Source: a virus | IMG/VR virus record: IMGVR_UViG_3300042502_001732 | Location: 64,001-128,000 of that record | Strand: one strand, 5' to 3' | Length of the DNA: 64,000 nucleotides | In this document: positions 22,471-38,834 of the stretch, in pieces | Position numbering within the stretch: the stretch's first letter is position 1 | How the letters are laid out: the number at the start of each line of letters is the position of its first letter | The notes under the pieces: model-generated | Databases searched by the model: none | What the model saw: only the letters and a program-made list of their open reading frames with translations | Told to the model about the DNA's origin: nothing | Position numbers and translations under genes: made by a program

Positions 22471-22501
22471 ATGGTTGTATGTTATTCTAGTTTCTTACTA
22501 C

Positions 22502-22729
22502 TCAGTAGTCAGCTAACTCACCGAATTCCTCTTCGACGAACTCTCGTGCGAACTCTCTGGCAGCGTCAGTGACTTCAGCAGCTAGGTCATAGCCGTTGTC
22601 GATCATCTCTTCGATCTCGTCGATGTAGTCGCAAAGTGATGCCGTGTCTGGCAGGTCTGATAGACTCATCATGGTGATGGCTTCGACTTCACGATTGATA
22701 ATGTTGATTGCTTTTTGTCTGTTTGTCAT
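22502..22729 (-). CDS. small acidic early protein
   Basis: About 20 D/E in 75 aa; own motif-1 promoter. Confidence 0.7.
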   Translation of the reverse strand: MTNRQKAINIINREVEAITMMSLSDLPDTASLCDYIDEIEEMIDNGYDLAAEVTDAAREFAREFVEEEFGELADY

Positions 22730-22812
22730 GGCAAGGTTATGATAATCTAGTTTTTAACTGGTGATTGGCAAGCAGGAGACGATCAATCTCCCACTTGCCT
22801 TTACCATGCTAC

Positions 22813-22890
22813 CTATTGAAACATTTGAATGACTACAACCATCCAGATGGCAAGGTTGAGTCCAATGACGATACCGAGTAATTCTTTCAT
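22813..22890 (-). CDS. 25-aa hydrophobic peptide MKELLGIVIGLNLAIWMVVVIQMFQ
   Basis: Hand-translated; below ORF-track cutoff; flanked by hairpins. Confidence 0.45.
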   Translation of the reverse strand: MKELLGIVIGLNLAIWMVVVIQMFQ

Positions 22891-22904
22891 GATGTTAAGA
22901 TATG

Positions 22905-22977
22905 TTGTCGCCCCCTCAACTTTCTACTGCGTTGCTACGGGATCTTGTGAGTAGGGGAAACCACCCCAGGGCGACAA
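22905..22977 (-). ncRNA. structured RNA element / leader
   Basis: TTGTCGCCC/GGGCGACAA closing stem enclosing GGGG/CCCC and CTACT/AGTAG hairpins; begins right after a motif-1 -10 box. Confidence 0.5.
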
Positions 22978-22997
22978 AAGGATTATGTTCTAGTTTT

Positions 22998-23198
22998 TTA
23001 CTGGTGGCCAGAGTAGTTTACTGGTTCGTCAGAGTCAACCTTGACGCACCAGCACTTCTTGGCTGTTTTCTTCTGGTAGTCAGTCCATGGCTTTGGGCCA
23101 AAGGCAGCTTCCCAAGCTGCCTTTTCTGTTGGGCCATCGCCCAGATTGCAATGTCGAAGGCAATTGATGCCCGATTGTCCTTTGATGATGTATTTCAT
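22998..23198 (-). CDS. small early protein
   Basis: Motif-1 promoter; TAA stop lies inside the next motif. Confidence 0.65.
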   Translation of the reverse strand: MKYIIKGQSGINCLRHCNLGDGPTEKAAWEAAFGPKPWTDYQKKTAKKCWCVKVDSDEPVNYSGHQ

Positions 23199-23223
23199 GG
23201 CGAAACTATTATGATCTAGTTTT

Positions 23224-23445
23224 TTACTGGTTGACTTTAGCTTCCCAGTTGAAAATGTCGGCTTGACTGATCTTGATGCCGTGCTTGTAAAACAAGTGGG
23301 ACAACGCGAGTCGGCTCATGCCTTTCTTGCGGCACACTCTGATTGCCTTTCGATAAGGCTCACAGCGCTTCACAAAGGGAGCGGTGCGGCGTGGCATCGG
23401 AGTGTTGATGATTTGATTTGAGATGTGTGCGGATGATAGTTTCAT
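23224..23445 (-). CDS. small basic HTH-like protein
   Basis: GMSRLALSHLF...ISQADIFNWE resembles an XRE helix-turn-helix. Confidence 0.5.
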   Translation of the reverse strand: MKLSSAHISNQIINTPMPRRTAPFVKRCEPYRKAIRVCRKKGMSRLALSHLFYKHGIKISQADIFNWEAKVNQ

Positions 23446-23484
23446 AGTAGTGGTGTGGTATTGGAATGATATTCTAGTTTTTTA

Positions 23485-23694
23485 TTAGTTAAATCGGCAA
23501 ACCTCTTCAAAAATTCCTTCGTTGTTTTGGACATAAAAGGAACAATCGAGCATTTCCATTTCGTCGTCCACTTCGTCTTCCATTGGAGGGCCAAACTCAA
23601 TCACATCGCAAATTGGAGTGAAGTGAAGCTCCTTGTGCTTGTCGATGTAGCAAAGGAACAAATTGTCTACTGTGTAATCTTCTAGTGTATTCAT
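23485..23694 (-). CDS. small acidic early protein
   Basis: Start MNTLEDY after motif 1; stop inside the next motif. Confidence 0.65.
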   Translation of the reverse strand: MNTLEDYTVDNLFLCYIDKHKELHFTPICDVIEFGPPMEDEVDDEMEMLDCSFYVQNNEGIFEEVCRFN

Positions 23695-23719
23695 GGTATT
23701 GGAATGATATTCTAGTTTT

Positions 23720-23923
23720 TTAATACTCCCATTCTGGCTCGTATCCATCAGCGAAACGATCTTCGTATGCCGCATCGAGCCATGCGTCTTCGTTGCCCTC
23801 GTTGGTGAGGTCATAGGGAAGCAGGTCGTCTTGCAGATTGTAATGGGGATCATACAATGCTTCATCGCCGTATTCTTCAACAAAGACATTGTATGGGATG
23901 GTATCGGGTTCAATAGTATTCAT
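23720..23923 (-). CDS. extremely acidic small protein (DNA-mimic candidate)
   Basis: 20 D/E versus 1 R and 0 K in 67 aa; Tyr-rich. Confidence 0.7.
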   Translation of the reverse strand: MNTIEPDTIPYNVFVEEYGDEALYDPHYNLQDDLLPYDLTNEGNEDAWLDAAYEDRFADGYEPEWEY

Positions 23924-23956
23924 GGTAGTGTTAGGATAATTTAGTTTCTTACTGGT

Positions 23957-24092
23957 GATCCTTTAGGCGGATCAATCCATCGCTTTTCTGGCAAGCCGAT
24001 TGCCACGCACCGCCACGCTCTCCGTTGCGGCTTTTCTCTTGTGCCTATTTGATCGGTCGGCTTCCGTGTTCCTACTATGCGGGAACCTAACG
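23957..24092 (-). ncRNA. putative structured small RNA cassette
   Basis: Lies between two motif-1 copies with no usable minus-strand ORF from the promoter; nested stems GTTCC/GGAAC, AAGCCGA/TCGGCTT, GCAC/GTGC, GCCGC/GTGGC, GATCC/GGATC. Confidence 0.5.
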
Positions 24093-24122
24093 CAAATTCA
24101 TCATAACCTAGTTTTTAACTGG

Positions 24123-24242
24123 TCAGATTTCGATGATGTCATCGTCATCGGCATAGGGATAAATCCCAGTATCGGGATCGTAAAGATCACCGAAAACGAT
24201 TTGCAATTCCAAGGTATCAAGTAGGGCGAGTAGGTCAATCAT
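24123..24242 (-). CDS. 39-aa acidic peptide MIDLLALLDTLELQIVFGDLYDPDTGIYPYADDDDIIEI
   Basis: Fills one motif-1 cassette exactly. Confidence 0.6.
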   Translation of the reverse strand: MIDLLALLDTLELQIVFGDLYDPDTGIYPYADDDDIIEI

Positions 24243-24286
24243 GGCAGGGTCATCATAACCTAGTTTTTAACTAGTGGATTTGAGAT

Positions 24287-24321
24287 AAAAAAAGGGGAGA
24301 GTGAAAAATCACTCTCCCCTT
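24287..24321 (-). terminator. intrinsic terminator
   Basis: AGGGGAGAGTGA/TCACTCTCCCCT stem plus U-run on the minus strand. Confidence 0.8.
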
Positions 24322-24329
24322 GTGGATTG

Positions 24330-24605
24330 TTATGCGTTGGCTTTTGCCGCTTCCATTTCCGCGATCATCGCCTTGAGGCGTTCGATCTTGGCCGCAGTTT
24401 TGGTTTCAGCGCGTCCGTTGTGGATTGCCTTGGACTCGACCTCAAAAAGGTCAACGCCATCGGGAGTGAAGCGGTGGGACATTGCCACTTCGACAATGAC
24501 GCGCAATGCTTCGCCGTCATTCTTCAACTCAAATTCCTCTTTCAAGGATTGGATGAAGTCTTTGTCGCGGAGGGTGGGAACGATAGGATGCTGTTTATTT
24601 TTCAT
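24330..24605 (-). CDS. small protein, ribbon-helix-helix-like N-terminus plus coiled coil
   Basis: Motif-1 promoter; ..FIQSLKEEFELKNDGEALRVIVE. Confidence 0.6.
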   Translation of the reverse strand: MKNKQHPIVPTLRDKDFIQSLKEEFELKNDGEALRVIVEVAMSHRFTPDGVDLFEVESKAIHNGRAETKTAAKIERLKAMIAEMEAAKANA

Positions 24606-24722
24606 AGCAAGGTCAGTGTATTCTAGTTTCTAACTGGTCTCAACCTTTCAGGCAGGTATCATTCCATCAATCTTCTTGGCGATTGATTGCCGTTTGGTGC
24701 TGGCATCATCATAACCTAGTTT

Positions 24723-24800
24723 CTAATTAGTCATTGCAAATTCATCAATGAATGTTTCGAGAATGTCACTAGGTGCTTCAATGCTTATTGCGATAATCAT
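24723..24800 (-). CDS. 25-aa peptide MIIAISIEAPSDILETFIDEFAMTN
   Basis: Fills one cassette; stop inside the motif. Confidence 0.45.
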   Translation of the reverse strand: MIIAISIEAPSDILETFIDEFAMTN

Positions 24801-24900
24801 GCGGTTAAATTTTATTTTAGTTTTTTATTAGTCTGGTGTATTTTTTAACTTATTATGAATAGATTGTTATGGTTAAGATTCCAGATTGGAATAAAAAGAT

Positions 24901-24943
24901 TCCGCTGGAGGATAATAATAACACAAAATTATCCTCCAGCGGA
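24901..24943. other. 16-bp perfect inverted repeat
   Basis: TCCGCTGGAGGATAAT / ATTATCCTCCAGCGGA. Confidence 0.8.
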
Positions 24944-24991
24944 TTTTACCACGATACTACACCTATAAAAAATTATATGATTTTAGGGAAA

Positions 24992-25216
24992 TTAGTCACA
25001 AAACAATCCCTTGCGTATCTTTCTTTTGCGATTCTTTGAAGGGGTATTTGCACAAGGCTTGAGCAAGCGCATAGGATTTTTGGATTTGACTGCTGTTAAA
25101 ATCCCGTGGATGAAGTATCCAAGGATTAGAATTGTTGTGAATCCAATTGAAAACCACACATAAAATGTGATGAATGTTTCGATTGTGAAGAATGATGTTG
25201 TTAGATATTCAATCAT
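24992..25216 (-). CDS. small membrane protein with basic tail
   Basis: TM helix; consensus sigma70 promoter directly upstream. Confidence 0.6.
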   Translation of the reverse strand: MIEYLTTSFFTIETFITFYVWFSIGFTTILILGYFIHGILTAVKSKNPMRLLKPCANTPSKNRKRKIRKGLFCD

Positions 25217-25222
25217 AATTTG

Positions 25223-25250
25223 ATTATATAATAAAGTTATTGATTGTCAA
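25223..25250 (-). promoter_or_regulatory. sigma70-type promoter giving a leaderless mRNA
   Basis: TTGACA-16 nt-TATAAT-6 nt-ATG. Confidence 0.75.
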
Positions 25251-25614
25251 GAGAGTTGCATTGGTAGCCAAGGAATTAGTTATATGAAACGAACGCAAGA
25301 GATTTTCCTTGGCTACCTTTGCAAAATTATCGTATACCAGCAAGCGCATCAGCCACTATGCGTTTTATCAGACTTAATAATGTATGTAGAACTCACAAAG
25401 TTGTGATGACAAACTGATTATATTATCATCGCAACTTTATAAACATCATTTTATCATTTACCAGATGAGATTACTTCGTGTGTTTTGGGATTGATCATTC
25501 TCACCAGATAGTCAATGATGAATTGAGTTGAGTCTTCTCCTATTGGATGGCTACCTAGTTGGTTGCCCATGCGATAAGTTAGATAGTTTTCGTGGATGGT
25601 AAAGACTAGATGGT

Positions 25615-25920
25615 TCATTGTTTGGAATGTTTGATGTGAAAAGCCACAAAGTCTTCTGCGAGATTATCAATTAGTTCTTCAACAAAAGCACTGGCATCAT
25701 CCATTGGGTGAAGTTCAAACTTTGAAACCGCATCCCAAACTTCGATTTGCTTTTGATCTTCCTGCTGTTCTGATGTGCTGTATTCATCAGCGAGCAAAGC
25801 GAGAGAGAGTCTTTCAGCACTCCAATCTTTGGGCCATTTGGAAAGGAAATGACCTGCGGCGATTAGGTATGCTTCGGCGTGGAGGGGATTGTTAGTGTCG
25901 AGGAGGATGTAGTCTTGCAT
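25615..25920 (-). CDS. hypothetical acidic early protein
   Basis: 101 aa ORF in a tightly packed leftward run. Confidence 0.65.
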   Translation of the reverse strand: MQDYILLDTNNPLHAEAYLIAAGHFLSKWPKDWSAERLSLALLADEYSTSEQQEDQKQIEVWDAVSKFELHPMDDASAFVEELIDNLAEDFVAFHIKHSKQ

Positions 25921-25929
25921 GGCGTGAGG

Positions 25930-26148
25930 TTAGTTGTTTTGGGATTGCTTGTCAACAAGTTCTTTCGCGATTTCTTCTTTGAGGTCTTCCAGTAGATCAA
26001 TGAAGTCAGAGAGTTCATCGTCCATAAGAAACATAGGAAGAATGCGGTCAATGATTGGTTCAGCAGGAAGCTCCCTTGTCAATTCGTAGTAACGCTTGAG
26101 TTTACAAGTATCGTGTGCGAACTCACCGATTTGTTTGATTGGTTGCAT
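25930..26148 (-). CDS. hypothetical early protein
   Basis: 72 aa, MQPI start. Confidence 0.6.
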   Translation of the reverse strand: MQPIKQIGEFAHDTCKLKRYYELTRELPAEPIIDRILPMFLMDDELSDFIDLLEDLKEEIAKELVDKQSQNN

Positions 26149-26150
26149 GG

Positions 26151-26312
26151 TTATTGTTCGATGAGGTTATTTTGTTTACAAAACTCGGCAATTACACCAT
26201 TCATCTCCGTAAGAAAGTCGGAGATCATGAGTTCCTTGTCGAATGAGACTTCGTTGCCTTCGATGCAATATAAAAGGTCAACTTGGATTGTGGGTGGATT
26301 GATTGGTTGCAT
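26151..26312 (-). CDS. 53-aa acidic protein (MQPINPPTIQ...)
   Basis: Hand-translated; fills the gap exactly. Confidence 0.55.
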   Translation of the reverse strand: MQPINPPTIQVDLLYCIEGNEVSFDKELMISDFLTEMNGVIAEFCKQNNLIEQ

Positions 26313-26317
26313 GGTGA

Positions 26318-26482
26318 TTAGTCGTCAGCGTGGTGAGTTTCCATTAGTTCAGCAAGATAGCCGCGAATTTCATCAGCGGTTTCGCTTTCTCCTCCAGAGT
26401 ATTCGTTAACAAGATCGAGAGCTTGATTGGCGATTTCCTCAAGGGCTTCAATTGTGTTTAGTAGTTTTTCGATTGTGGTCAT
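26318..26482 (-). CDS. 54-aa acidic helical protein (MTTIEKLLNTIE...)
   Basis: Hand-translated; motif-1 promoter. Confidence 0.6.
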   Translation of the reverse strand: MTTIEKLLNTIEALEEIANQALDLVNEYSGGESETADEIRGYLAELMETHHADD

Positions 26483-26520
26483 GTCAATAGTATAGTTTAG
26501 TTTCTTATTAGTGAAAGTGT

Positions 26521-26618
26521 GCTCCCCGCTAGGAGTCGAACCTAGGCTTCCAAGCTATCAGCAAAGCTATCCATGGTTTGCTTTGCTTTAGTGTTTGGTG
26601 TGCCAGCGCATCGGGGAG
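26521..26618 (-). ncRNA. tRNA-like RNA with abnormal D and anticodon arms
   Basis: Acceptor CTCCCCG/CGGGGAG; T-arm CTAGG-TTCGACT-CCTAG; long AGCAAAGC/GCTTTGCT arm; motif-1 promoter immediately upstream. Confidence 0.7.
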
Positions 26619-26645
26619 GTGAGCTTATTGTAAGTTAGTTTTTTA

Positions 26646-27128
26646 TTAGACGCTGGCAGGAATTTCTTCGTCCTCGTCGTATTCGACAAAGTTAAAGTTT
26701 TCTTTTGCAAACTCCGTGACATCAGCATCATCGACTTGGTTGTCGTCAATTTGACCTTCGGAGATGATAGCAGTCCCAGCAAACCAGCAACCGCTCTCAA
26801 AGTAGTCCAGCGTGAATTGATCGTTTGGAAACATTTCAGACAAAGCGGCAATGGCTTGAAGTGGTGGACTCCAAGCAGTCATAAAGGTTGCTTGAAAGTC
26901 TGCGATCTCGGAGATGAGTTGGTCAGCAACTTCACGCTGCTCTTCTTCGCTCAAGTCCCATTTGGTTCCCCAGTTTTCAAGTCTCCAATCATACCATCCA
27001 TTGCCCTCAAGCAATTCGGGTGGCGTGGGTTTGATCTTCTCAAAAGAAAGACCATTTTCTTTTAGATAGCTTTCCAATTCTGGACTGCAATCCATGATCG
27101 ACAATTTGTTTTCGCACCAGTTAGGCAT
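26646..27128 (-). CDS. YubB/DUF1281 ferredoxin-like domain protein
   Basis: MPNWCEN...WYDWRLENWGTKWD...F.TAWSPP. Confidence 0.8.
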   Translation of the reverse strand: MPNWCENKLSIMDCSPELESYLKENGLSFEKIKPTPPELLEGNGWYDWRLENWGTKWDLSEEEQREVADQLISEIADFQATFMTAWSPPLQAIAALSEMFPNDQFTLDYFESGCWFAGTAIISEGQIDDNQVDDADVTEFAKENFNFVEYDEDEEIPASV

Positions 27129-27153
27129 AGTAGTAGTATAGTTTAGTTTCTTA

Positions 27154-27402
27154 TTAGTTGATCTTCATCAAAGAAAGAAGTTTCAATGTGATTGGCTTTT
27201 CAGCAACATGGAAGAAGAAACCATATTCCAAAACCTCAATGTCGCCATCGACTTCGGCAAGAGAAATATAGTCATCGCCGTGATTATCAGCAACGAATGG
27301 GCCTTCGTCATCATAGCCGATAAAGTAAAGCGTATCGTTTAGATCGACAGCATAAGCGTCACCAAGTTCTTCGTGTAGTTGTTCAAGTGTGGTTGTTTGC
27401 AT
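27154..27402 (-). CDS. small acidic early protein
   Basis: Exactly fills a motif-1 cassette. Confidence 0.65.
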   Translation of the reverse strand: MQTTTLEQLHEELGDAYAVDLNDTLYFIGYDDEGPFVADNHGDDYISLAEVDGDIEVLEYGFFFHVAEKPITLKLLSLMKIN

Positions 27403-27419
27403 GTTGTTAGTAGTATAGT

Positions 27420-27515
27420 TTAGTTTCTTATTAGTGTATGGGAGTATCTCAAGTCTTCTTCGCTGTTGAAGGTGATGAAGTATTCAATTTCGGTCATATT
27501 AGGGTAGTTTGACAT
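27420..27515 (-). pseudogene. truncated copy of 33441-33641
   Basis: MTEIEYFITFNSEED matches MTEMEYFITFNSEED, then runs into motif 1. Confidence 0.55.
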
Positions 27516-27762
27516 GGTATTAGTGGTGGTATTTGTATTAGAGGAGATTGTGATCAATGTAGTCTTGAATGGATGGAATGCTTTCCATGTATTGCTGCAG
27601 ATCAGCAATAATATCATCTAGATTCTCGCGGTTGTGAGTGTGGGGGCAACCAAGGTTGTTGTTGACAAGCTTGAGGATTTGCTCTGCGATTTCTTCGTGG
27701 GTTGGGTAGTGTTTCATATTGTTGCTTATATGGCTTTAGTGTAGGTTAGGAGTTGGGGTTAG

Positions 27763-27951
27763 TCAAATTTTTTCTGCATCCAAGTCGATGCCGTCATAGT
27801 CAACCCAGAAAGATCCTTCGATGTAGGAGCTTTCTTTGGGCAAAGGTCTTTCATCTTGTTCCGCGAGTTCAATCGCATCTTGCAATGATTCAGCTTCAAT
27901 TTCCATGTATCCGTAAGATTCCCAGACACAGGGGATTTTGTATGTTTTCAT
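27763..27951 (-). CDS. small acidic protein (V/IEAES..DAIE.A family)
   Basis: Motif-1 promoter. Confidence 0.65.
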   Translation of the reverse strand: MKTYKIPCVWESYGYMEIEAESLQDAIELAEQDERPLPKESSYIEGSFWVDYDGIDLDAEKI

Positions 27952-28148
27952 GTTGTTAGTAGTATAGTTTAGTTTCTTATTAGTCTACGAGAAACCTGCG
28001 CTTCCATTGTGATTCTTGCACTTGTTTATCAAGCCAAGATTGTTGTTGAAAGATGCGGATTCCATACACAGGTTTTTGTTTTGTAAAAAACAATGATATG
28101 ATTTGGTCGAGTAGCTTCATGTTGTTATGATAGTTTAGTTTTTTATTA

Positions 28149-28499
28149 TTACCTTGCATTTAGAGCATACACAAGTCGGTTGTTAATAATGACACCATCG
28201 GCTTTGTCAATATACTTTGTTCCATCAAAGAATCTTTCTTTTAGATATGGATTGTATCCTACGATTTGGTATTGATGTTGAGTGGGATCAAGTTCATTGG
28301 TAGGTTCTCCAATAATAAATGCGTGGACATTTTTCCTCTTTTGTTGCAACACTCTTTGTCTTCCTGCTTCACTCACCTTGAATGAAACATTCTTGAGATG
28401 TATTGCATCAACATGACGCATGACTTTCCACACGCCATTGACTTTCTCTTGAACACTCAAGCGTTTTTTATGTAGATTGTAGTAGACGCGAACATTCAT
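28149..28499 (-). CDS. conserved phage hypothetical protein
   Basis: VYYNLHK...FKVSEAGRQRVL..KRKNVHAF. Confidence 0.75.
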   Translation of the reverse strand: MNVRVYYNLHKKRLSVQEKVNGVWKVMRHVDAIHLKNVSFKVSEAGRQRVLQQKRKNVHAFIIGEPTNELDPTQHQYQIVGYNPYLKERFFDGTKYIDKADGVIINNRLVYALNAR

Positions 28500-28503
28500 A
28501 AGT

Positions 28504-28686
28504 TTATTGAGCTAGTTTTTGAAGGGCTTCAAGACAATCAAGGCGGGTCTTTTTTCCCGTGATTGCTTTGGCAGTTTTGAATACGAGATTGCGACTATGC
28601 CGCATTCCCATGATTTCAAGTTTCAATCCGCTGATAAGGACACGCAAGCGGTATCCATCAATTTGTTCTTTAGTAGTTAGTATCAT
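28504..28686 (-). CDS. hypothetical protein
   Basis: Motif-1 promoter; LKLEIMGM. Confidence 0.6.
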   Translation of the reverse strand: MILTTKEQIDGYRLRVLISGLKLEIMGMRHSRNLVFKTAKAITGKKTRLDCLEALQKLAQ

Positions 28687-28766
28687 AGCGACCTCAGTAT
28701 ATTCTAGTTTTTTATTATTAAAATAAGGGCAGTTTTATGTCATACCCAGGACATTGCTACTACTAC

Positions 28767-29270
28767 TTATGAAAGTTCCTCATAATCCTCTGTGCCAAGG
28801 ATATTGTTAGATTTTACGGTGAAACATTCGGGGCGATTTTCTTCTGGATTCAGTAGCTTTTTGCGCTCGCTTTCAGTAAGAAACTCAGCGAATGTTCCTT
28901 TATCGACCACTTGCCCATCGACATAATAAGTCGAAGATGGAAAGTGATTGTTGCCAGTTGAAGGATAAAGCCTGATATATTCAGCATCTTTATGCTCAAT
29001 AACATAGGGAAATTGTTTCCAATTACCCCATGGCAGACTTTGCACTTCCCCACGCTCGCCATTTTCAATGGCATCTTTGACGCTGGAAAGGTTAGCAAAG
29101 TTCACGCCAGCACGAACAACAGCACTTGTCACTTTTTCAAGAATGACATTCTTATGAGCGGCGGCGGGTTTGGGATTGCTTTTCCAATAGGCTTTTACAA
29201 AAGAACCTTTCGTGTTGAGGATCTTATTGATAACTTCAGTTGCGGTTAGTGATGCAGTATGTGTATTCAT
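28767..29270 (-). CDS. hypothetical early protein
   Basis: 167 aa; motif-1 promoter. Confidence 0.7.
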   Translation of the reverse strand: MNTHTASLTATEVINKILNTKGSFVKAYWKSNPKPAAAHKNVILEKVTSAVVRAGVNFANLSSVKDAIENGERGEVQSLPWGNWKQFPYVIEHKDAEYIRLYPSTGNNHFPSSTYYVDGQVVDKGTFAEFLTESERKKLLNPEENRPECFTVKSNNILGTEDYEELS

Positions 29271-29375
29271 AGCGACCTTAATATAATCTAGTTTCTTATT
29301 AGTGACAGTGTATTGGGGTTTGGTAACGAAACAGATTTCATTACCAAAACCAATATATTCTAGTTTTTTATTAGT

Positions 29376-30893
29376 TTATTCAGCTTCTTTATTGCCACGA
29401 GTCGGGCAATCGGTGATATGAACAAGTTTGTTCTTTGCTCGCGTGATGGCAACATATGAGAGATTCTTTTCTTGTTCTTTCATCCAATCCAAAACCGCAT
29501 ACTTACTTGGTTGAAATTGACTCATACCAAGGATATAACAGTTGTCAAATTCCAATCCTTTTGACTTGTGAATGCTTGACAGTGTGACTACATTCGGCTT
29601 TTTATAGTCGTCATTATCACTGAACATATCACTGATAAGTTTTTGAAGAGATGCAACATCATGCTTGCCGAGGGTTTGGCATCGCTCAATGAGAATCATC
29701 ATTGTATCAAATTTGTCTTCAAGCAGTGCAAGTTTTGCTTTACTAGCCTTTTCGCTTTCACGATCAAAATGCTTTTGAAGTCGAAGTGTAAACGTTGCCA
29801 AGTCTTTTACTTTCCACTTGCGAGTGAGTGTAATAAGGTTTTGACCAATGTCTTTTCCTTCGATTCTACAACCAATGCCTTCACGAATAAGCGCAAACGC
29901 AAGAGCAACAAGCGGGGAATTATTGCGACATATGATACCATCATTTTTATTAAGGTTTAATGACGGTGTAGATTTTACAAATTCATCATACTTAATTGAA
30001 GATATTTCCCCGTCGTTGTTATTTTCAAATGCTTCAATGTCTGCTACATATTCTTTAGCAGCGGTGATAATATTCTTTCCGCAGCGATAGCAAACACTCA
30101 GCGGAAGTTCAACAGCGTCAAACATAGTTTTGATGAGTTCCATGCTATTGTTTTCAGCACCAGTAAACCCATAGATAGCTTGATTTGGATCACCAATAGC
30201 AATCAATCTACCACCTGGCTTAAGCATTTTCTTGAGCAAAAGCTTTCTACAAACATTGGTATCTTGTGCTTCATCAACAATAATCCAATCATATTGTATC
30301 ATATCAACATCAAAAAGCAATGGGAAATAAAGCATATCACTGAAATCAATGCTTTTGACATCACGGTTATTAAGATCCAGTACCTTTTGGCATACATCAA
30401 TAATCGTTTCCAAGCTCACATCAGCATCAATATCAATATCATTATGCTGAATAATATTGACCCAAGCATTGATATCATCAACAGTGTTGCAACCAGAAAC
30501 ACCAAAACCGTATTCTTTTGCAAAGCGAACCATATCCATGATTGCTTTACGACACTTCATAAGTTCCCCTTCTTGAGTGAAATACTCAACAAAGTTATAA
30601 ACCTTGGAGTTATTAACACTCATTTTGCCTTTTGCTTTGGCAAGACTTTTCAATGATTCACTATGAAAAGTAGCAGCACTTGCATTGGGATAACCCATAG
30701 TAACAAGACGATTTTGCAATTCAGTTGCAATTTTCTTGTTGAAAGCAAGCATCAAAACATCACCGCTCATACGATCAACAGCATTGATAGCAGTAGTAGT
30801 TTTACCACTTCCCGCTTTAGCATTGACAATCGCATTGCCAGTTCCTTCAGATACCCATTTATATATATTTTCTTGATAAGTAGATGCAAACAT
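29376..30893 (-). CDS. UvrD/Rep-like SF1 helicase
   Basis: AKAGSGKTT, VDEAQD, GDPNQAIYGF, CYRC, IHKSKGLEF, YVAITRAK. Confidence 0.92.
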   Translation of the reverse strand: MFASTYQENIYKWVSEGTGNAIVNAKAGSGKTTTAINAVDRMSGDVLMLAFNKKIATELQNRLVTMGYPNASAATFHSESLKSLAKAKGKMSVNNSKVYNFVEYFTQEGELMKCRKAIMDMVRFAKEYGFGVSGCNTVDDINAWVNIIQHNDIDIDADVSLETIIDVCQKVLDLNNRDVKSIDFSDMLYFPLLFDVDMIQYDWIIVDEAQDTNVCRKLLLKKMLKPGGRLIAIGDPNQAIYGFTGAENNSMELIKTMFDAVELPLSVCYRCGKNIITAAKEYVADIEAFENNNDGEISSIKYDEFVKSTPSLNLNKNDGIICRNNSPLVALAFALIREGIGCRIEGKDIGQNLITLTRKWKVKDLATFTLRLQKHFDRESEKASKAKLALLEDKFDTMMILIERCQTLGKHDVASLQKLISDMFSDNDDYKKPNVVTLSSIHKSKGLEFDNCYILGMSQFQPSKYAVLDWMKEQEKNLSYVAITRAKNKLVHITDCPTRGNKEAE

Positions 30894-30961
30894 GTGACAG
30901 CAGTATATTCTAGTTTTTTAGTAGTCTTTTTTCTACAATTCTAGTTTTTTAGTAGTGGATA

Positions 30962-31660
30962 TTACTCTGGATTCACAACAAATCCCGTATCATCTTTCTT
31001 GGCTTTGCCTTTATCAACAAGACCAACAACACAATTACTAGGATCAAGAAAGCGAAGATCATTGGTATCACCATCAACAACAACCTTATTCTTGTAAGTA
31101 GCAGGAAGTTTTTTGCGAAAAACAACAGCAACATTGCCACCCATACTCATAATAAGATCAGTATGAGATTCATTGCTTTCACTACGAGAGAAAGTAAGAT
31201 GATAATTCTTTGGAAAATTACCATTAACAAACTCAATCATACGCTTTACATTCTTGGTATAATCATAAAATACAACATCGGGAAAGTGTTGCATCATATT
31301 CTTGCCTTGAAACAAGACATTTTCCCAAGGAATATCACTTGTAAGATTGAATCTAAAGCAAGGAATCATATCATTCTTCTTTGCTTTTTTAACAGCACTT
31401 TGAATTTCTTTATACAATTTAAGCAAGAAATCTTGTTTATCATTAAAGAAATACTTGGTTTTATTGATACGAGATTGTTGAACATTTGAATAAACACCCA
31501 TGCCAGCGGTATTAAGACAAGCAGCCGCACAACCTATTGATGCAAATTGACAAGTGTTATAACCAGACAATTTAGCAGGAGCTAAATGAATACCATTTGA
31601 ATAATAACCAAATGATTCACCTTTTTTGATTTTTGTATTTGCAGTAGTGAGTAGTTTCAT
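30962..31660 (-). CDS. GP88-like phage protein (radical-SAM-related fold)
   Basis: LAPA...CQFASIGCAAACL, RFNLTSDI, FYDYTK, DGDTNDLRFLD. Confidence 0.8.
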   Translation of the reverse strand: MKLLTTANTKIKKGESFGYYSNGIHLAPAKLSGYNTCQFASIGCAAACLNTAGMGVYSNVQQSRINKTKYFFNDKQDFLLKLYKEIQSAVKKAKKNDMIPCFRFNLTSDIPWENVLFQGKNMMQHFPDVVFYDYTKNVKRMIEFVNGNFPKNYHLTFSRSESNESHTDLIMSMGGNVAVVFRKKLPATYKNKVVVDGDTNDLRFLDPSNCVVGLVDKGKAKKDDTGFVVNPE

Positions 31661-32455
31661 AGCGACAACAATATAATCTAGTTTTTTATTAGTTTCGATT
31701 CAATCGTGATGATGAATATCAATAAAACAATATGATGATTTATTGATATTGATTTCAATCATGCGAAATCATTATGATCTAGTTTCTTATTAGTTTTTAT
31801 ATCTTTTTCTATATTGATATATAAACTTATATCTTCAACTATGATAATCTAGTTTTTTATTAGTCTTTTTATCCTTTCTACTATCTGTTTATCTTTGTTT
31901 TATTTTTTTAATTATTATTGTCTTTATCATTGATAAAATTTGCTATATCATTATTAGTTACGCTACGCGACATGTTTTATTCCGTAACTCATTGATAATC
32001 AATGATTTTGTTTTTTTGGATACAGATCGTTGGATATATATTATATTGTGTTTATCTGGCGTATTTTGTTGATATATATCGTGTGTGTATCTGTGTGTGC
32101 TTGTGTGTATCTATGTGTATTTTGATACATTTTATGCGTATTTTGATATTGTTTTAGTATATTTTGGTGTATTTATACGCTATTTTTGTTTGTTTTTGAT
32201 CCTCATTTCCTTTATGAGTTGATCGTATTCCCCGCTTCTGTATTGTTTTAAGATGATATCCACTGCAATGCAACAGGCTTTAAAATTATTTTTTTGGGTA
32301 TTGTTTGATTGTTTCATGTGTGTGTTGTTGTTATTGTGTGTATGCTTATTCACTAGCCATTATGCGTTTTATCAAATTTACATGTTTATATCAGATAAAC
32401 AAAGTTGTGATATTTACAAAGTTATAATGGTGACATTATTGTATTGATACCAATG

Positions 32456-32641: not shown

Positions 32642-32656
32642 AAGTTACATTTGTTT

Positions 32657-32920: not shown

Positions 32921-32948
32921 ATTTGATGTTTTGTTGTATCAAAGTTTG

Positions 32949-33197: not shown

Positions 33198-33220
33198 ATT
33201 GTTATTGTATCAGAGTTTTA

Positions 33221-33418: not shown

Positions 33419-33440
33419 ACTCTTATTGTATTAGTGTTCC

Positions 33441-33641: not shown

Positions 33642-33653
33642 ATTATTATTGTA

Positions 33654-33788
33654 TCAGTGTTCCTTGTTTATTTCCTTCTTACCATCCTTACGCACACGCT
33701 TATTCTGTATGCGTTTATAGTATTTGCGTAGATGCTTCCACCATTGAACGGTCTTGACACCGCCTTTACTCTTTGATGAACTACTCAT
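33654..33788 (-). CDS. 44-aa highly basic peptide (copy 1)
   Basis: MSSSSKSKGGVKTVQWWKHLRKYYKRIQNKRVRKDGKKEINKEH; conserved copies at 50047 and 51333. Confidence 0.65.
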   Translation of the reverse strand: MSSSSKSKGGVKTVQWWKHLRKYYKRIQNKRVRKDGKKEINKEH

Positions 33789-33804
33789 TTGTTTATTGAT
33801 AAAA

Positions 33805-34413
33805 TTAACTGACGGTTTGTTGTTCTAGTTGTTTGAGTTTGTTTTTCAAGCTGTTTAATTTGTTTTCAATCGAGCTGTTTTTATTTTCAACGAGTCGTAT
33901 CATTGATCTACAGCATTTACAAAACTGATAGTATGATGGTTTTGGATTGTTGCCTTGATATTTCAAGGAGTTTTGAATACGATTATGACTGGTGGTTTTG
34001 ACGCGAATAATCCTTGAACAATCGCATGTGTATTCGTATGTGTTTTGTCGTTTGGTTTTGGTAACACTGGTGTCATAGCTGTGGCAACGAATCGGTTCAG
34101 CATTGAAAACCTTTATCATAACATATTTCCATTCTTTGCCATGACTCTTTACAAAACTACCAAACACCATTCTCTGAATATAATGAGCCATTTCATGAAC
34201 AACAATCTCATGAAAGGTTTGTTTGTTATGCTCTGCCAAGTCAAGTTGGAACATCAATTCTCTGATTGATTGATTAAAAGACACAAGACAAGTTCCTGCT
34301 GTTGTGCCGTTTCTTTTAAAGATGATGTTGGTGGGTCTTGGAAAAACCCTGTTAAAGAATTTTTCAGCAATGAGGAAACATTCTTCAACCTTTTGTAGTA
34401 TGGTGTCTTGCAT
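33805..34413 (-). CDS. SprT-like zinc metalloprotease
   Basis: TTAG, VHEMAH, HGKEWK, RCHSY, YTCDC. Confidence 0.9.
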   Translation of the reverse strand: MQDTILQKVEECFLIAEKFFNRVFPRPTNIIFKRNGTTAGTCLVSFNQSIRELMFQLDLAEHNKQTFHEIVVHEMAHYIQRMVFGSFVKSHGKEWKYVMIKVFNAEPIRCHSYDTSVTKTKRQNTYEYTCDCSRIIRVKTTSHNRIQNSLKYQGNNPKPSYYQFCKCCRSMIRLVENKNSSIENKLNSLKNKLKQLEQQTVS

Positions 34414-34517
34414 GACAACAGTATATTTTAGTTTTTTATTAGTTTCTTGAAATCCATCAAACGATGAAATGAATCTACAATCCTTTTATAAAAAAAACAA
34501 TTTGACTAAATAATACT

Positions 34518-34823
34518 ATGACTACAAAAGATCAATATAATTTAGCTAACTTGTATAAGGAATCATACGAAAATGATGACATTTCATTTGATGCTGATTT
34601 ATCCGATGTTAATTTAACTTACAATGATGAAGAATCTGCACTTATTGAAAAATATGGCAAATTGGGAGAAAAGCTTGTAAATTACTTTCATGCACTTGAA
34701 AATGCACTTAAAAATCCCATGACTAATTTTGCAACTATTCAACACTTAACGGATAAAATCAATTCCATGCAACATGGTATGCGTATGGTAGATAGTAGAA
34801 ACAAAGTTGATAGACATTCATAA
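34518..34823 (+). CDS. late protein, probable internal head protein
   Basis: CTAAATA upstream; MTTKDQYNLANLYKESYE leader. Confidence 0.6.
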   Translation: MTTKDQYNLANLYKESYENDDISFDADLSDVNLTYNDEESALIEKYGKLGEKLVNYFHALENALKNPMTNFATIQHLTDKINSMQHGMRMVDSRNKVDRHS

Positions 34824-34833
34824 ATTTTTAAAG

Positions 34834-35049
34834 TTATCCAATTAAGATTGCTTTACAATCGCTTTCTTCCTCCTCTTCAACAATCTCATGGTTGCCATAA
34901 TACCATTCACTATTTACTCCTAGCTTTATAGACTCTTCTCTACATACAGAACACGCATTTACTCCTCCTTCATATCCATTAACAACAACCATTGTTTCTG
35001 GATCGTATTCTTGAAGTTTTTCAATTAATTGTTTGACTTTCATCTTCAA
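34834..35049 (-). CDS. hypothetical protein (MKVKQLIEKL family)
   Basis: Common phage N-terminal motif. Confidence 0.6.
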   Translation of the reverse strand: MKMKVKQLIEKLQEYDPETMVVVNGYEGGVNACSVCREESIKLGVNSEWYYGNHEIVEEEEESDCKAILIG

Positions 35050-35252
35050 TTAAAAAAGAAAGGAAACGATTGTTTGACTAGGGAAAGAGTCAATTCTTCA
35101 CAGATCAACCATTTGATAAGAACGATTGGGTAAAAGATGGCATCAATGATTCCCCAGAATAGACTATTGTTGTTTAGGTTATATCCCAGTACACCAACGA
35201 TGTAAGCCAAGACATAACTATAATTAGAACGGTAATGATAAGTTTTGTTCAT
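35046..35252 (-). CDS. small membrane protein
   Basis: Hydrophobic; ATGA-coupled. Confidence 0.55.
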   Translation of the reverse strand: MNKTYHYRSNYSYVLAYIVGVLGYNLNNNSLFWGIIDAIFYPIVLIKWLICEELTLSLVKQSFPFFFN

Positions 35253-35350
35253 ATTAAAAAAGATTAATAATTGCTTTAATGATGGTTACGAAAACCATTG
35301 TTAAGCACACTCCCATAAAGAGTGTGCAAAGAATTAGGATTGGTGTTGAA

Positions 35351-35614
35351 TCAAAGTTTTTCATTTAAAAATGTTTCTATTTCTTCGAAAAATTCACCAT
35401 CCCATTCACGATTTTTATTGATGGTTTCAAATTCATCTGTTAAGTCTTCAGCAAGTTCATAAAGACCACCGTGTCCTTTTTCTTTAATAGTCTTTTCCAA
35501 CAATTCACTGTGGTCTATTTCATGCGTATGCATCGCATGTGCAACAGTGATTGCCGCAACTACTTCATAATGAGTCTCTTGCCAAGATGCAAATCCGTTT
35601 GGGAAATTTTTCAT
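35351..35614 (-). CDS. conserved phage hypothetical protein
   Basis: FPNGFASWQETHYEV...GGLYELA..LTDEFE. Confidence 0.7.
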   Translation of the reverse strand: MKNFPNGFASWQETHYEVVAAITVAHAMHTHEIDHSELLEKTIKEKGHGGLYELAEDLTDEFETINKNREWDGEFFEEIETFLNEKL

Positions 35615-35710
35615 AAATGTAATTTAGATGAGATGATTGTATTTTAGTTTTTTATTAGAATTTTTTTATAAAAGATTATGAATCTATTCATAATATGGAT
35701 AAATAATAAT

Positions 35711-36070
35711 ATGAAATGTTTAATTTGTGAGAAATCATTAGAGGGAAGACAGAAAAAATTTTGTAGTAGTAAATGTAAAAGTATGTTAGCTAATAATAAA
35801 TTGCAAAATTATCAAGCACAGCAAACAAGGGGCAAGATAAGAAAAAAAAAGTTAATCGAAATGAAAGGAGGCTGTTGTGAAAAATGCGGTTATAATAAAA
35901 GTTTAGCAGCATTGTCTTTTCATCATTTGAATCCAAATCTTAAAAAATTTCATTTAGATATTAGAAATCTTTCCAATAGGAAGTGGGAAATGATTATTGA
36001 AGAATTTAATGAATGTGAATTGTTGTGTTTTAATTGTCATATGGAATTACATCATGGTTGCGAATGGTAG
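35711..36070 (+). CDS. free-standing HNH homing endonuclease
   Basis: CxxC...FCSSKC, GGCCEKCGY, FHHLNP, LLCFNCHMELH; ATAAATA late box upstream. Confidence 0.85.
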   Translation: MKCLICEKSLEGRQKKFCSSKCKSMLANNKLQNYQAQQTRGKIRKKKLIEMKGGCCEKCGYNKSLAALSFHHLNPNLKKFHLDIRNLSNRKWEMIIEEFNECELLCFNCHMELHHGCEW

Positions 36071-36347
36071 GGGTGGAGGGATTCGAACCCCCACTCAATC
36101 GATTATGCTTACCACTATAGTTTTCACTACCCTTTCGGTTTGTGGTCTGGACTATCCCTTAATCTTCAGCATTACCTGTTAAGACTGAACTATTATAGTC
36201 TCTGCACGTCTCTCTTTCGAGATTTCGCTCAAGATTGGCATCAGCATTACCTGTTAAGCGTTCCTTGAATTTAAGTTCTGCTAACTTATTATTTCTAACA
36301 AGAAGACCCGTTAAAGTCGACTGCTTTGACCATTAAGCTACACCCCT
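36065..36347 (-). tRNA. tRNA with CAU anticodon (probably Ile2/lysidine type), split by a group I intron; exons 36347-36315 and 36107-36065
   Basis: Spliced: AGGGGTG...GTCGA-CTCATAA-TCGAT...GGGGGTTCGAATCCCTC-CACCCCT-ACCA; the A1-U72 pair argues against an initiator tRNA. Confidence 0.85.
36108..36314 (-). mobile_element. group I intron (207 nt, no ORF)
   Basis: Inserted after U33 and ends in G; P AAATTCAAGGAA, Q AATCTTGAGC, R GCAGAGACTA, S AAGGGATAGTCC. Confidence 0.9.
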
Positions 36348-36400
36348 TTATATAAAATTGAACAGCCTTTTATTGACTTGCTTAGGTCAGATTGCCGATA

Positions 36401-36574
36401 TTATCGGAGTCTGTATTGATTTGTTTCGATGTTGACATCGACAAGATTGCGCTTTTCAAGAGCAAGAATAATGCGCTTGGCGTTCTTATCAAAAGAATGC
36501 CATCCATCAATCTTACTGATGAATGCAAACGCTTCTCTTTGATGTTTGCCCATCTTTTTAATGTTTGTTTCCAT
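36401..36574 (-). CDS. 57-aa basic protein (METNIKKMGKHQRE...)
   Basis: Hand-translated; TTGACA...TATCTT promoter near 36627-36655. Confidence 0.5.
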   Translation of the reverse strand: METNIKKMGKHQREAFAFISKIDGWHSFDKNAKRIILALEKRNLVDVNIETNQYRLR

Positions 36575-36691
36575 ATTATTGCGTTTTTTGCTGTTATCGG
36601 TGAATCATCATCACCGCCGACTAATTTAAGATACCAACAATTTTCACTTTGTCAACATCTTGTCCCATAAGATAATCTAGTTTTTTATTAA

Positions 36692-36880
36692 TTATTCTGA
36701 AAACATGCTGTTGTCGTTTTCGTATTCATCGGAAGAAAAAGTCTTTCTTAAAACTATTTCTGTAATATATTTGTCACACAGATGATTGATATAATCATCA
36801 AATTCTTTATCATTCAGAAAACCAACAGCCACATGCCCATTGGCAAGCATAACTTTTTCTATTGGTTTTTTATTATACAT
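36692..36880 (-). CDS. hypothetical protein
   Basis: Leftward small-gene run. Confidence 0.5.
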   Translation of the reverse strand: MYNKKPIEKVMLANGHVAVGFLNDKEFDDYINHLCDKYITEIVLRKTFSSDEYENDNSMFSE

Positions 36881-36895
36881 TATATAAACTTTTTA

Positions 36896-37123
36896 TCAAG
36901 CGAATTCTACTTCGATTTCGTGTCCTGTTTCTGATTTGGTTTGTCCATCTAGAACAAGATAGATTGCGGCGTGGTATTTATCTTCATCAATATCATAGAA
37001 AAAGTTTAAATCAACAAATTCATTTATTACATGCCACTCATCTTCTTCATGAGCGCGTTTAATTGTATACTGACCTTCTTGTGTGTCAAGAATAAGTTCT
37101 TGTTCTTTGACAATAAGTTTCAT
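36896..37123 (-). CDS. hypothetical acidic protein
   Basis: Leftward small-gene run. Confidence 0.55.
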   Translation of the reverse strand: MKLIVKEQELILDTQEGQYTIKRAHEEDEWHVINEFVDLNFFYDIDEDKYHAAIYLVLDGQTKSETGHEIEVEFA

Positions 37124-37144
37124 TTGTTTCTTTATTAGATGTGT

Positions 37145-37345
37145 TTAAGAACTTTTCCTACCATTCGAATAGCAACGATGAATTTTACCATCATCACCCG
37201 TTTTAAATAAAATCCATTCTCCTTTATTATGTTTTTGTTTAAGATAGTCTTTAACCCATTTAGGAAAATCTGTAAAACTATCAGCAGTCTTTATTTTATG
37301 TTCAAATGGAGTAGCGATAATACAAACATACCTAGCGGGTTTCAT
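37145..37345 (-). CDS. hypothetical protein
   Basis: ATGA-coupled. Confidence 0.5.
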   Translation of the reverse strand: MKPARYVCIIATPFEHKIKTADSFTDFPKWVKDYLKQKHNKGEWILFKTGDDGKIHRCYSNGRKSS

Positions 37346-37605
37346 TTGTTTCTGTATTTACGGAGAAGTTGCTCGTCTGTCATGCGGGTAGTCAAGAATG
37401 TCTGGTGGAAAGTGACAGGGATGTTGCCATACTCACCATCATCATGGATAAGAGTGTCGCCATTGTAGATATCAAAATCTGCACCCCAATAACTTTCATT
37501 AATAACTACTGGTGGGAATCTCTCACCATCAATATTTGAGGTGATATTATGCTCAATGACTACTCGTCTTTTAGGATTAAAAAGATTAAAAATATTAAAA
37601 AACAT
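37342..37605 (-). CDS. hypothetical protein
   Basis: Probable start MFFNIFN. Confidence 0.5.
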   Translation of the reverse strand: MFFNIFNLFNPKRRVVIEHNITSNIDGERFPPVVINESYWGADFDIYNGDTLIHDDGEYGNIPVTFHQTFLTTRMTDEQLLRKYRNK

Positions 37606-37803
37606 ATTATTAGTATTGGTTGTTGTGTTTATCCATGATAGCGTTGAACCTCTCTTGAAATATATTTGAGGAATCATCAAATAGACTAATATCGGGTTTG
37701 AGTGAATTGATTGTTACTTGAGTGAGTTCTGAAAGATCCCGAATAGTTGCGAGCAATTGCTCAATTGTTTGTTCCACAGTATCCATATTATTTATTATTA
37801 GAT

Positions 37804-37878
37804 TGGTAGGCCGTGATGGAATCGAACCATCGACTAAAAATTAGAAATTTCTTGTTATATCCCCTTAACTAACGGCCC
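37804..37878 (-). tRNA. tRNA-Arg(UCU)
   Basis: GGGCCGT/ACGGCCT acceptor, AGAAA-TTTCTAA-TTTTT anticodon arm, GATGG-TTCGATT-CCATC, encoded CCA. Confidence 0.9.
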
Positions 37879-37885
37879 AAAATTA

Positions 37886-38104
37886 TTAGAAGTTTTTAAA
37901 GTCGTGATCTGGGAAAATCTCTTTGATTTGTTCATGAAGGAGGCGTTGAAACTGTAGGAACTTATCTGTCAACTCCCAAAGATTATCCTTGCCAAGTTTT
38001 TCATAAGCAATATTAACTTCATTGATTAGTTCATGACCACAGGAATCAAGAACAGATTCCATGTCTTCAAAGTTTGGTGCAAGTATTTTCATATATTCTT
38101 TCAC
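37886..38104 (-). CDS. hypothetical protein
   Basis: Motif-1 promoter. Confidence 0.55.
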   Translation of the reverse strand: MKEYMKILAPNFEDMESVLDSCGHELINEVNIAYEKLGKDNLWELTDKFLQFQRLLHEQIKEIFPDHDFKNF

Positions 38105-38134
38105 TTGTGTTAGTTTATTTTAGTTTCTTATTAA

Positions 38135-38614
38135 TCACCAAGATGAAGTATAAAACAATCGTTCTTTATCCCAGTTGGTGTTGTCAATAAGATTAGAAAT
38201 TTCATCAATTGCTTTTTCAATACGTTCCCAATAGTATTCATCAACATCAGTTGATCCAAAAAAGAAACCAGAAACTGGCATCATTTCAGAAGGATCATTT
38301 TCTGATTTTGTATTCAGTAATGTTTCCAGCAAATCAATTAAAACATCTTTGTCTAGTTCATAATGTGCGCAGTTGTCGATTCCTACTTGAACATGTGTGA
38401 CAAACCAATTATGAAGCGCATTAAATTTGCGCCAATAGGCCACCTGATGAAAGATAGTATAATAGTCTTTAAAAGTATCTGGATATGGTTGATCTAATGG
38501 CAAAAACTCTACGATTTTTGGATCGTTTGGATTGGGTTCCCTGTCGAGTTCGTGCAATTCGTCGATGGTGTGTTTGGTCTTTTTGACCTTAAAGATATAC
38601 ATGTCTAGTCCCAT
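38135..38614 (-). CDS. conserved phage protein (MGLDMY...YWRK.N family)
   Basis: MGLDMY, AYWRKFNALHNWF, GFFFGS, YTSSW. Confidence 0.8.
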   Translation of the reverse strand: MGLDMYIFKVKKTKHTIDELHELDREPNPNDPKIVEFLPLDQPYPDTFKDYYTIFHQVAYWRKFNALHNWFVTHVQVGIDNCAHYELDKDVLIDLLETLLNTKSENDPSEMMPVSGFFFGSTDVDEYYWERIEKAIDEISNLIDNTNWDKERLFYTSSW

Positions 38615-38639
38615 GGCTTTATTCTATTTTAGTTTTTTA

Positions 38640-38834
38640 TTAGTATCGAAATTCAGTTTCATCAACTGCATCTTTCATTAGTTGTCGAAACAACACACGC
38701 CAAGACCTTTCGTTTAGAATTTCCATTCTTTGTTTATTGATTATTACTTTGCTTTCTTCAAGTTGATCTTTATAAGAAGCTACTTTCTTTTCGAGATATT
38801 TGATTCTGTTTTCAGTTTTTTTAGTATCACTCAT
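38640..38834 (-). CDS. coiled-coil protein, paralog of 39219-39428
   Basis: Shared I.KQ...I..E..WR..F..LMKD.V. Confidence 0.6.
   Translation of the reverse strand: MSDTKKTENRIKYLEKKVASYKDQLEESKVIINKQRMEILNERSWRVLFRQLMKDAVDETEFRY

Follow-up and report, generated by a model that had tools for sequence, protein, structure and literature searches.

A stretch of 64,000 nucleotides of viral DNA (the window; bases 64001-128000 of a 143,932-bp IMG/VR viral contig, CheckV completeness 69%) was analysed for a short repeated element. Between window positions 22478 and 38645 on the minus strand (~16 kb), 31 co-oriented copies of ACTAATAARAAACTARA followed by a TAnnnT hexamer were located with a position weight matrix (PWM), which was derived from the copies and applied to the whole contig. 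The element is likely to be the 'house' promoter used by one phage sublineage for its accessory genes, that is, a leaderless variant, devoid of a −35 box, of the promoter-early stem-loop (PeSL) and promoter-middle stem-loop (PmSL) cassettes, which at the same time would act as a junction for the exchange of gene units.

The matrix scan of the whole contig, proposed by an earlier sequence-only reading of the window, recovered the array of about 31 one-promoter, one-cargo cassettes described there: all 31 copies lie on the minus strand, one extra match was found outside the array (genome position 3334, minus strand), and the plus strand gave none. Scores in shuffled genomes reached at most about half of the observed scores. 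Using the pattern as originally read, with up to 2 mismatches, 27 matches were obtained (0.22 expected from shuffled sequence), every one of them on the minus strand.

An information profile of the 31 copies resolved the element into a 17-nt box, variable in its 5′ part (ACTAAT, ACCAGT, AGTAGT, ATTAAT) and nearly invariant in its core TAARAAACTAR, followed by 1-2 free bases and the hexamer, with T in 28/31 copies, A in 30/31, three weakly constrained positions and T in 30/31. Such a TAnnnT block is what characterises −10 hexamers of the sigma-70 family. No conserved information was present in this profile at the −35 position, as had been noted before, and a TG extension was likewise not conserved. 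An inverted-repeat core and attC-like structures are absent from the motif. ATG stands 6, 8 or 9 nt past the hexamer in 19/31 copies, compared with 9.8% for control TAnnnT hexamers of the same region (binomial p = 2.9e-12); the fixed short spacing seen by the sequence-only reading held, its range of 7-12 nt being slightly off. These starts have no Shine-Dalgarno (SD) site, again as read earlier, and SD-like sites precede only 3/86 long open reading frames (ORFs) of the whole contig. As read from the sequence, one frame of the box contains TAA TAA and a second one TAA or TAG (TAR), so that most incoming reading frames are closed. An open frame of at least 35 codons ends at the motif in 20/31 copies, and the upstream stop codons that had been placed in or at the motif were indeed found there. 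ORFs starting after the elements comprise 20-505 codons, and many of them end within the element that follows or immediately ahead of it.

At 22.5-24 kb the cassettes measure 226-260 bp, in keeping with the near-periodic spacing described for this part. Adjacent copies are more alike than in shuffled order (permutation p < 1e-4), private variants are common to neighbours, and three sets of private flanks, known from the earlier reading, are present between neighbouring copies. Its list of cargo types was also borne out: small ORFs, a tRNA-like RNA, a bare hairpin, a promoter with only a terminator behind it, and two tandem promoter pairs, separated by 5 nt and 44 nt. Hairpins were found near only 2-3/31 copies (24292-24321, 22425-22472 and a small one at 29305-29345), and terminators follow few cassettes. 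The distal array (22000-30000) has ~40-42% G+C, compared with ~30% in the structural region and core, which is consistent with cargo acquired from elsewhere.

Judging from its proteins, the genome is that of a deep-branching T4-like myovirus of lake metagenomes. DNA polymerase and portal gave T4-like phage matches at 27-31% identity, one virion protein a 66% match to T4-like cyanophages, and a gp55-type late sigma (phrog_234, E = 2e-25) adjoins an SbcD/gp47-like gene. Comparison of the array with 50,697 phage records (megablast) returned no match and no close cultured relative; nearly word for word, the array is present in lake-water metagenomes from 2016-2024, and the search of sequencing runs listed no RNA run containing it.

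Other promoter classes of the same genome share the arrangement of the array element. The T4 late box TATAAATA/TAAATA lies 5-7 nt ahead of ATG in many structural genes, and TTGACA stands exactly 35 nt ahead of ATG in several genes (leaderless examples of these two classes, in genome coordinates: 143144-, 136563-, 138273-, 126855-, 39856+, 43608+, 62704+). Two canonical promoters were found within the array itself, TTGACA-17-TAACCT-6-ATG and TTGACA-16-TATAAT-6-ATG. A second repeat promoter family, GGAACACTGATACAAT with an extended −10, is placed 5-6 nt ahead of small-gene ATGs; besides the exact-pattern copies given in the table, less strict ones precede the ATGs at 33197 and 32920. The stretch carrying these GGAACACTGATACAAT-type elements is also a site of indels relative to G001, one of the related contigs. 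The phage thus looks broadly leaderless. Because four promoter types share one fixed distance to start codons, the hexamer appears to be a real −10 and the message of each cassette probably starts at its own ATG; we regard this common distance as the strongest sequence argument for both points. From the same anatomy, a −35-less promoter placed for leaderless starts, we infer that the element is active as a promoter, as the sequence-only reading had suggested.

For a comparison with relatives, 41 related viral loci were retrieved using the GP88-family cargo gene (30962-31660), and IMG/VR was scanned for the exact pattern, which gave mostly single chance matches with only L021 and L088 being related. 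Four related contigs (three close GP88 loci and one found by pattern) carry 15-23 same-strand copies each at the same ATG spacing, and the box core TAARAAACTAR does not change between genomes even at cargo identities of only 70-84%. Distant relatives (48-64% identity) are without the box element, and in more than 30 of them the GP88 orthologue is preceded by TTGACA/TTGCCA-N17-TAnnnT-N7-9-ATG; only in this sublineage, therefore, does the box take the place of the −35. Read in this way, leaderless design is a clade-wide trait and replacement of the −35 by the 17-nt box a sublineage-specific one. The distant lineages have repeated intergenic elements of their own. L133 shows a repeated TTGCwA −35 with a uniform TACCAGAAAT spacer ahead of leaderless ATGs. 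L118, L138 and L142 contain paired ~27-bp palindromes (GTAAGT..GTTGA / TCAAC..ACTTAC) around a GC-rich hairpin, e.g. L118:3419-3500, with 7-14 repeats in the homologous region.

Between relatives the array is a variable region, and its differences often follow the cassettes. In the blocks that it shares with the window, G001 reaches 98-99% identity; homology ends within copy 7 just past the 17-nt box and restarts exactly at copy 8, with unrelated cargo of 75 and 224 nt in between, and it also restarts exactly at copies 5 and 9. One gene has a full element in G001 and a degraded half-element in the window, and G001 has an extra element-bearing unit. Where the window has one cassette (copy 11), three are present in G004. 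In the comparison with G003, window cassettes 25 and 26 and six G003 cassettes were unmatched, cassette 27 was reordered, and cassette 29 was split over two units. Within the array, 11/44 alignment ends fell in elements, which make up 7.3% of its length (p = 2.6e-4). The comparison of breakpoints that had been recommended thus favoured the elements, and cassette order and content do vary among relatives. Minor variants in contigs from four lake samples leave the reference at motif edges as well (28716, 38644, 38135, 34419/34422, 35635). Other minor lake variants join 33752 to 38827, skipping 5 kb with five motif cassettes; the shorter side of this joint is only 32 nt, and the joint accounts for ~25-30% of summed contig depth in two runs. 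Three motif-to-motif joints in the contigs of the four lake samples (34441/38612, 34444/35635, 35657/38111), considered as recombinants, were rejected as probable repeat artefacts: one side measured only 20-23 nt, and they were read as contig ends inside the repeat.

Several observations weigh against the element as promoter and exchange junction in one. Gene-sized indels occur at motif-free borders at 33.8-32.6 kb, several G001 junctions lie away from motifs, and an exact repeat of only 17-26 bp is short for homologous recombination. In a compact array, whose intergenic space is roughly the motif, selection for intact genes alone would place breakpoints there. The dominant genotype was identical in lake samples over eight years, so that turnover is not fast; some cargo genes have no recognisable promoter, so that one promoter per gene is not absolute; and scans of contig proteins gave no candidate for a factor reading the box. 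Since indels are also found at motif-free gene borders, gain or loss does not depend on the motif, and the element is better described, from the alignments, as a preferred junction than as a required one. The crossover point proposed by the sequence-only reading is accordingly retained in part: the motif coincides with borders of gene units that differ between relatives, and the motif-free indels at 33.8-32.6 kb speak against any stricter role. The position of crossover itself varies, being located at the 5′ edge, inside the hexamer or past the ATG.

T4-like phages with gp55 use the host polymerase throughout infection. In the proposed mechanism, the TAnnnT −10 would probably be read by host sigma-70-type RNA polymerase, and the 17-nt box, at about −30 to −14, would occupy the place taken by spacer and −35 in the relatives. 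With the hexamer 6-9 nt ahead of ATG, the transcription start would coincide with the start codon or lie no more than 3 nt from it, so that the mRNA would be leaderless. Stop, promoter and start would be combined in ~35 nt, and the presence of an own promoter on most small genes would be explained by the leaderless design in a nearly SD-less phage. The ~30 co-oriented repeats would moreover offer short homology to the recombination or replication machinery of the phage, and exchange would best be explained by short-homology recombination or template switching between them, following the PeSL model (PMC2839356). Cassettes might in this way be deleted, inserted, replaced or moved with expression intact, as proposed for PeSL and PmSL.

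The candidate explanations diverge on how the box is read. That it is recognised by something specific is suggested by the core, unchanged at 70-84% cargo identity, together with the canonical −35 promoters that coexist in the array; a dedicated phage-encoded factor reading the box in place of −35 recognition seems to us possible, at slightly below an even chance. The wider proposal, in which a phage factor not described before, and unrelated to MotA/AsiA, would bind the 17-nt box, substitute for −35 recognition by host sigma and define a lineage-specific transcription class, is offered more tentatively. Among the activators, sigma factors and recombinases whose search had been advised, the gp55-type late sigma was found; MotA_activ, MotCF and AsiA (PF09114, PF09158, PF09010), WhiB, an extra sigma, tyrosine integrase (PF00589) and resolvase (PF00239) gave no match in the 69%-complete contig. 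Pfam and PHROGs scans of ~40 cargo and neighbour proteins returned no DNA-binding or sigma-like candidate except gp55. A T7-type RNA_pol search of the contig was also without match, but shows little, its control having remained blank in every genome; a T7-like single-subunit polymerase promoter, considered on account of the 24-nt length, was rejected: the profile is TAnnnT, the phage has a gp55 system, and sigma-70 promoters occupy the equivalent position. If host RNA polymerase by itself reads the element, as an early promoter, the box would bind no factor, and its uniformity would be due to concerted evolution, through repeated recombination between copies, and to a mild influence of the A-rich spacer on promoter strength. 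This agrees with the use of host polymerase by T4-like phages and the missing activator, with private variants common to neighbouring copies, as expected from local copying, with the uniform spacer that L133 has in spite of its canonical −35, and with the plain sigma-70 promoters of GP88 orthologues elsewhere. We nevertheless consider it rather unlikely, since the unchanged core points to selection on the sequence itself, a promoter lacking both −35 and TG extension is normally weak, and the canonical TTGACA promoters in the same array suggest two separately controlled classes.

An action of the repeat in RNA, either as a translation enhancer for SD-less initiation or as an RNase processing site where long transcripts are cut just ahead of each ATG, would suit an A-rich element that lies no further than 40 nt upstream of start codons in a phage devoid of SD sites, all the more as the few terminators imply that read-through transcripts must exist. 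It is made improbable by the invariant T, A and T of TAnnnT at a fixed distance, a signature of DNA promoters, by the known promoter types (TATAAATA; TTGACA-N17-TAnnnT) at the same position before other genes and orthologues, and by the several copies that head non-coding cargo or nothing. Still more improbable is an integron-like system, the analogy drawn by the sequence-only reading, if it is taken to mean that the third of the genome absent from the contig codes for a dedicated recombinase, which would recognise the motif site-specifically and insert or excise cassettes. Breakpoints at motif edges, reordered cassettes and a contig only 69% complete leave some room for it. Against it stand the 144 kb without tyrosine integrase or resolvase, which extends to the contig what had been noted for the window, a motif without inverted-repeat core or attC-like structure, an own promoter in every cassette, the varying crossover positions and the adjacent motif-free indels.

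The elements and their cargo are compiled in the table below. Annotated cargo comprises a helicase, an SprT-like protease, GP88, an L5 gp82-like protein and a DUF1281_C protein; all other cargo genes are ORFans, and the host-takeover or anti-defence role suggested by the sequence-only reading finds no support in this list. An actinobacterial host was considered on account of the L5 gp88 and gp82 families and the leaderless design, and neither WhiB nor other support for it was found; the GP88 protein gave no match in a scan of one genome per prokaryote species. The RNA at 26514-26620 (minus strand), which has its own motif promoter, shows a tRNA-like fold with a 7-bp acceptor stem, a canonical GGTTCGA-type T-arm and an oversized middle region; it was called by neither ARAGORN nor Rfam, and tRNA-Arg was the sole Rfam match in the array at E ≤ 1. 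This tRNA-Arg(TCT) is also present in G001 (25754-25828; L158:5754-5828), where the 98% homology ends ~25 nt into the tRNA and is followed by a 1.1-kb insertion carrying its own motif copy. Among the cassettes of relatives, 4-7 tRNAs are interspersed, and G002 also has a tmRNA. Two ORFs inside the array lie on the opposite strand, 35678-36070 (+) and 34518-34823 (+), each with a late-type TAAATA box ahead of its ATG. The former gave a weak HNH endonuclease match (E = 5e-4) that narrowly missed the Pfam cut-off; the segment with the latter differs between window and G001.

Elements of the array and other promoters or hairpins of the window (window coordinates, all minus strand; start: nt from hexamer to ATG, or leader)
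Feature	Position	Start	Cargo or content	Relatives
Copy 1	38620..38645	ATG +6	box + TAGAAT; 159-aa ORF 38135-38614	cassette 99% identical in G001
Copy 2	38111..38136		68-aa ORF, tRNA-Arg(TCT) 37804-37878, further small ORFs	
Copy 3	36668..36693		located by PWM scan	
Copy 4	35635..35660	leader 21 nt	87-aa ORF 35351-35614	
Copy 5	34419..34444	ATG +6	SprT-like protease 33805-34413, then motif-less run of small genes	
Copy 6	31840..31865		tandem promoter, cargo 44 nt	
Copy 7	31770..31795		75 nt (20-aa ORF)	unrelated 224-nt cargo in G001
Copy 8	31669..31694	ATG +9	GP88-family gene 30962-31660	
Copy 9	30932..30957		hexamer degenerate, cargo 5 nt	tandem pair kept in G001 and G004
Copy 10	30901..30926	ATG +8	helicase 29376-30893	
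Copy 11	29351..29376		sole cargo 10-bp hairpin 29305-29345	three cassettes here in G004
Copy 12	29279..29304	ATG +9	167-aa ORF 28767-29270	
Copy 13	28695..28720	ATG +9	60-aa ORF, then L5 gp82-like ORF 28149-28499	
Copy 14	28126..28151	ATG +6		
Copy 15	27960..27985	ATG +9		
Copy 16	27411..27436	ATG +9	82-aa ORF	
Copy 17	27134..27159	ATG +6	160-aa ORF, DUF1281_C domain	
Copy 18	26626..26651		tRNA-like RNA 26514-26620, no ORF	
Copy 19	26488..26513	ATG +6	54-aa ORF, then 1.5 kb of small ORFs and two canonical sigma-70 leaderless promoters	
Copy 20	24808..24833		25-aa ORF	
Copy 21	24707..24732		67 nt, non-coding	
Copy 22	24614..24639	ATG +9	91-aa ORF, then terminator hairpin 24292-24321	
Copy 23	24251..24276	ATG +9	39-aa ORF	
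Copy 24	24099..24124		141 nt, non-coding	homologous cassette in G003
Copy 25	23932..23957	ATG +9	67-aa ORF	no match in G003
Copy 26	23703..23728	ATG +9	69-aa ORF	no match in G003
Copy 27	23465..23490		73-aa ORF	position in cassette order differs in G003
Copy 28	23207..23232	ATG +9	66-aa ORF	
Copy 29	22981..23006	leader ~90 nt	25-aa hydrophobic ORF; predicted fold of leader not more stable than shuffled sequence (z = -1.1)	halves in separate G003 cassettes
Copy 30	22738..22763	ATG +9	75-aa ORF	
Copy 31	22478..22503		last of array; only strong terminator hairpin after	
Terminator hairpin ending array	22425..22472		z = -9.1	
Canonical TTGACA-16-TATAAT promoter	25223..25250	ATG +6	74-aa ORF 24992-25216	
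Second repeat promoter family GGAACACTGATACAAT, extended −10 (~four copies)	33647-33663, 33424-33440, 39433-39449, 50040-50056			

The same gene stands behind a canonical promoter in some relatives and behind the box in others, which provides a handle on a new system of sigma appropriation or activation. If a dedicated factor exists, box and factor would co-evolve, and this would explain the different repeated elements at the same genes in sister lineages; likewise, a 35-nt stop-promoter-start junction would make a captured gene immediately expressible in an SD-less, leaderless phage. The data further suggest that whole phage lineages may run on leaderless mRNA from all promoter classes. For the annotation of metagenomes, the motif points to the true starts of very small genes, which are often missed by gene callers.

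Among known systems, leaderless promoters with TAnnnT 6-8 nt ahead of the start codon are found in Actinobacteria, Deinococcus-Thermus and the Thermus phage phiYS40. The element of the window resembles them in the −10 hexamer at a fixed short distance from ATG and in the lack of an SD site, and differs in two respects: a phage-specific 17-nt box is joined to the hexamer, and the element recurs as an array in a T4-like phage. With integrons it shares tandem, co-oriented single-gene units bounded by a repeat; the analogy fails on every defining feature, as IntI integrase, imperfect-palindrome attC, one common promoter and promoterless cassettes are all absent here. T4 MotA/AsiA middle promoters, and the PmSL elements of Vibrio phage nt-1, which are shuffling cassettes (PMC4122927), likewise combine a −10 hexamer with an upstream box in place of the −35. 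The Mot box (TGCTT, near −30) is absent here, however, the box being placed at about −30 to −14, and no member of the MotA_activ, MotCF or AsiA families turned up in the contig.

PeSL cassettes have been described in the T4-type phages RB49/phi1, PST/T4 and nt-1/KVP40 (Arbiol et al. 2010, PMC2839356; Comeau et al. 2014, PMC4122927) as a longer composite of AT-rich region, −35, −10, Shine-Dalgarno site and adjacent terminator stem-loop (PMC2839356, PMC4122927). The stem-loop ends transcription arriving from upstream, and a further feature of PeSL cassettes is the formation of mini-circles when neighbouring elements recombine. The comparison, already drawn by the sequence-only reading, is apt for a phage with a gp55-type sigma and T4-like portal and DNA polymerase (27-31% identity). 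Two PeSL features are found again, the location in a T4-type hyperplastic region, with the repeated promoter ahead of a small, mostly ORFan gene, and the association with indels: in both systems the elements coincide with insertions, deletions, replacements and displacements between close relatives, and for neither is a dedicated recombinase known. Three are lacking, namely the −35 box, the Shine-Dalgarno site and the stem-loop, a hairpin being near only 2-3/31 copies. Unlike in PeSL, the conserved part is a 17-nt box in spacer position, ATG follows 6-9 nt past the hexamer, and the upstream stop is carried along. The PeSL idea of regulatory repeats as modular exchange joints is hereby extended, in a more compact design, to a deep uncultured branch of T4-like lake phages.

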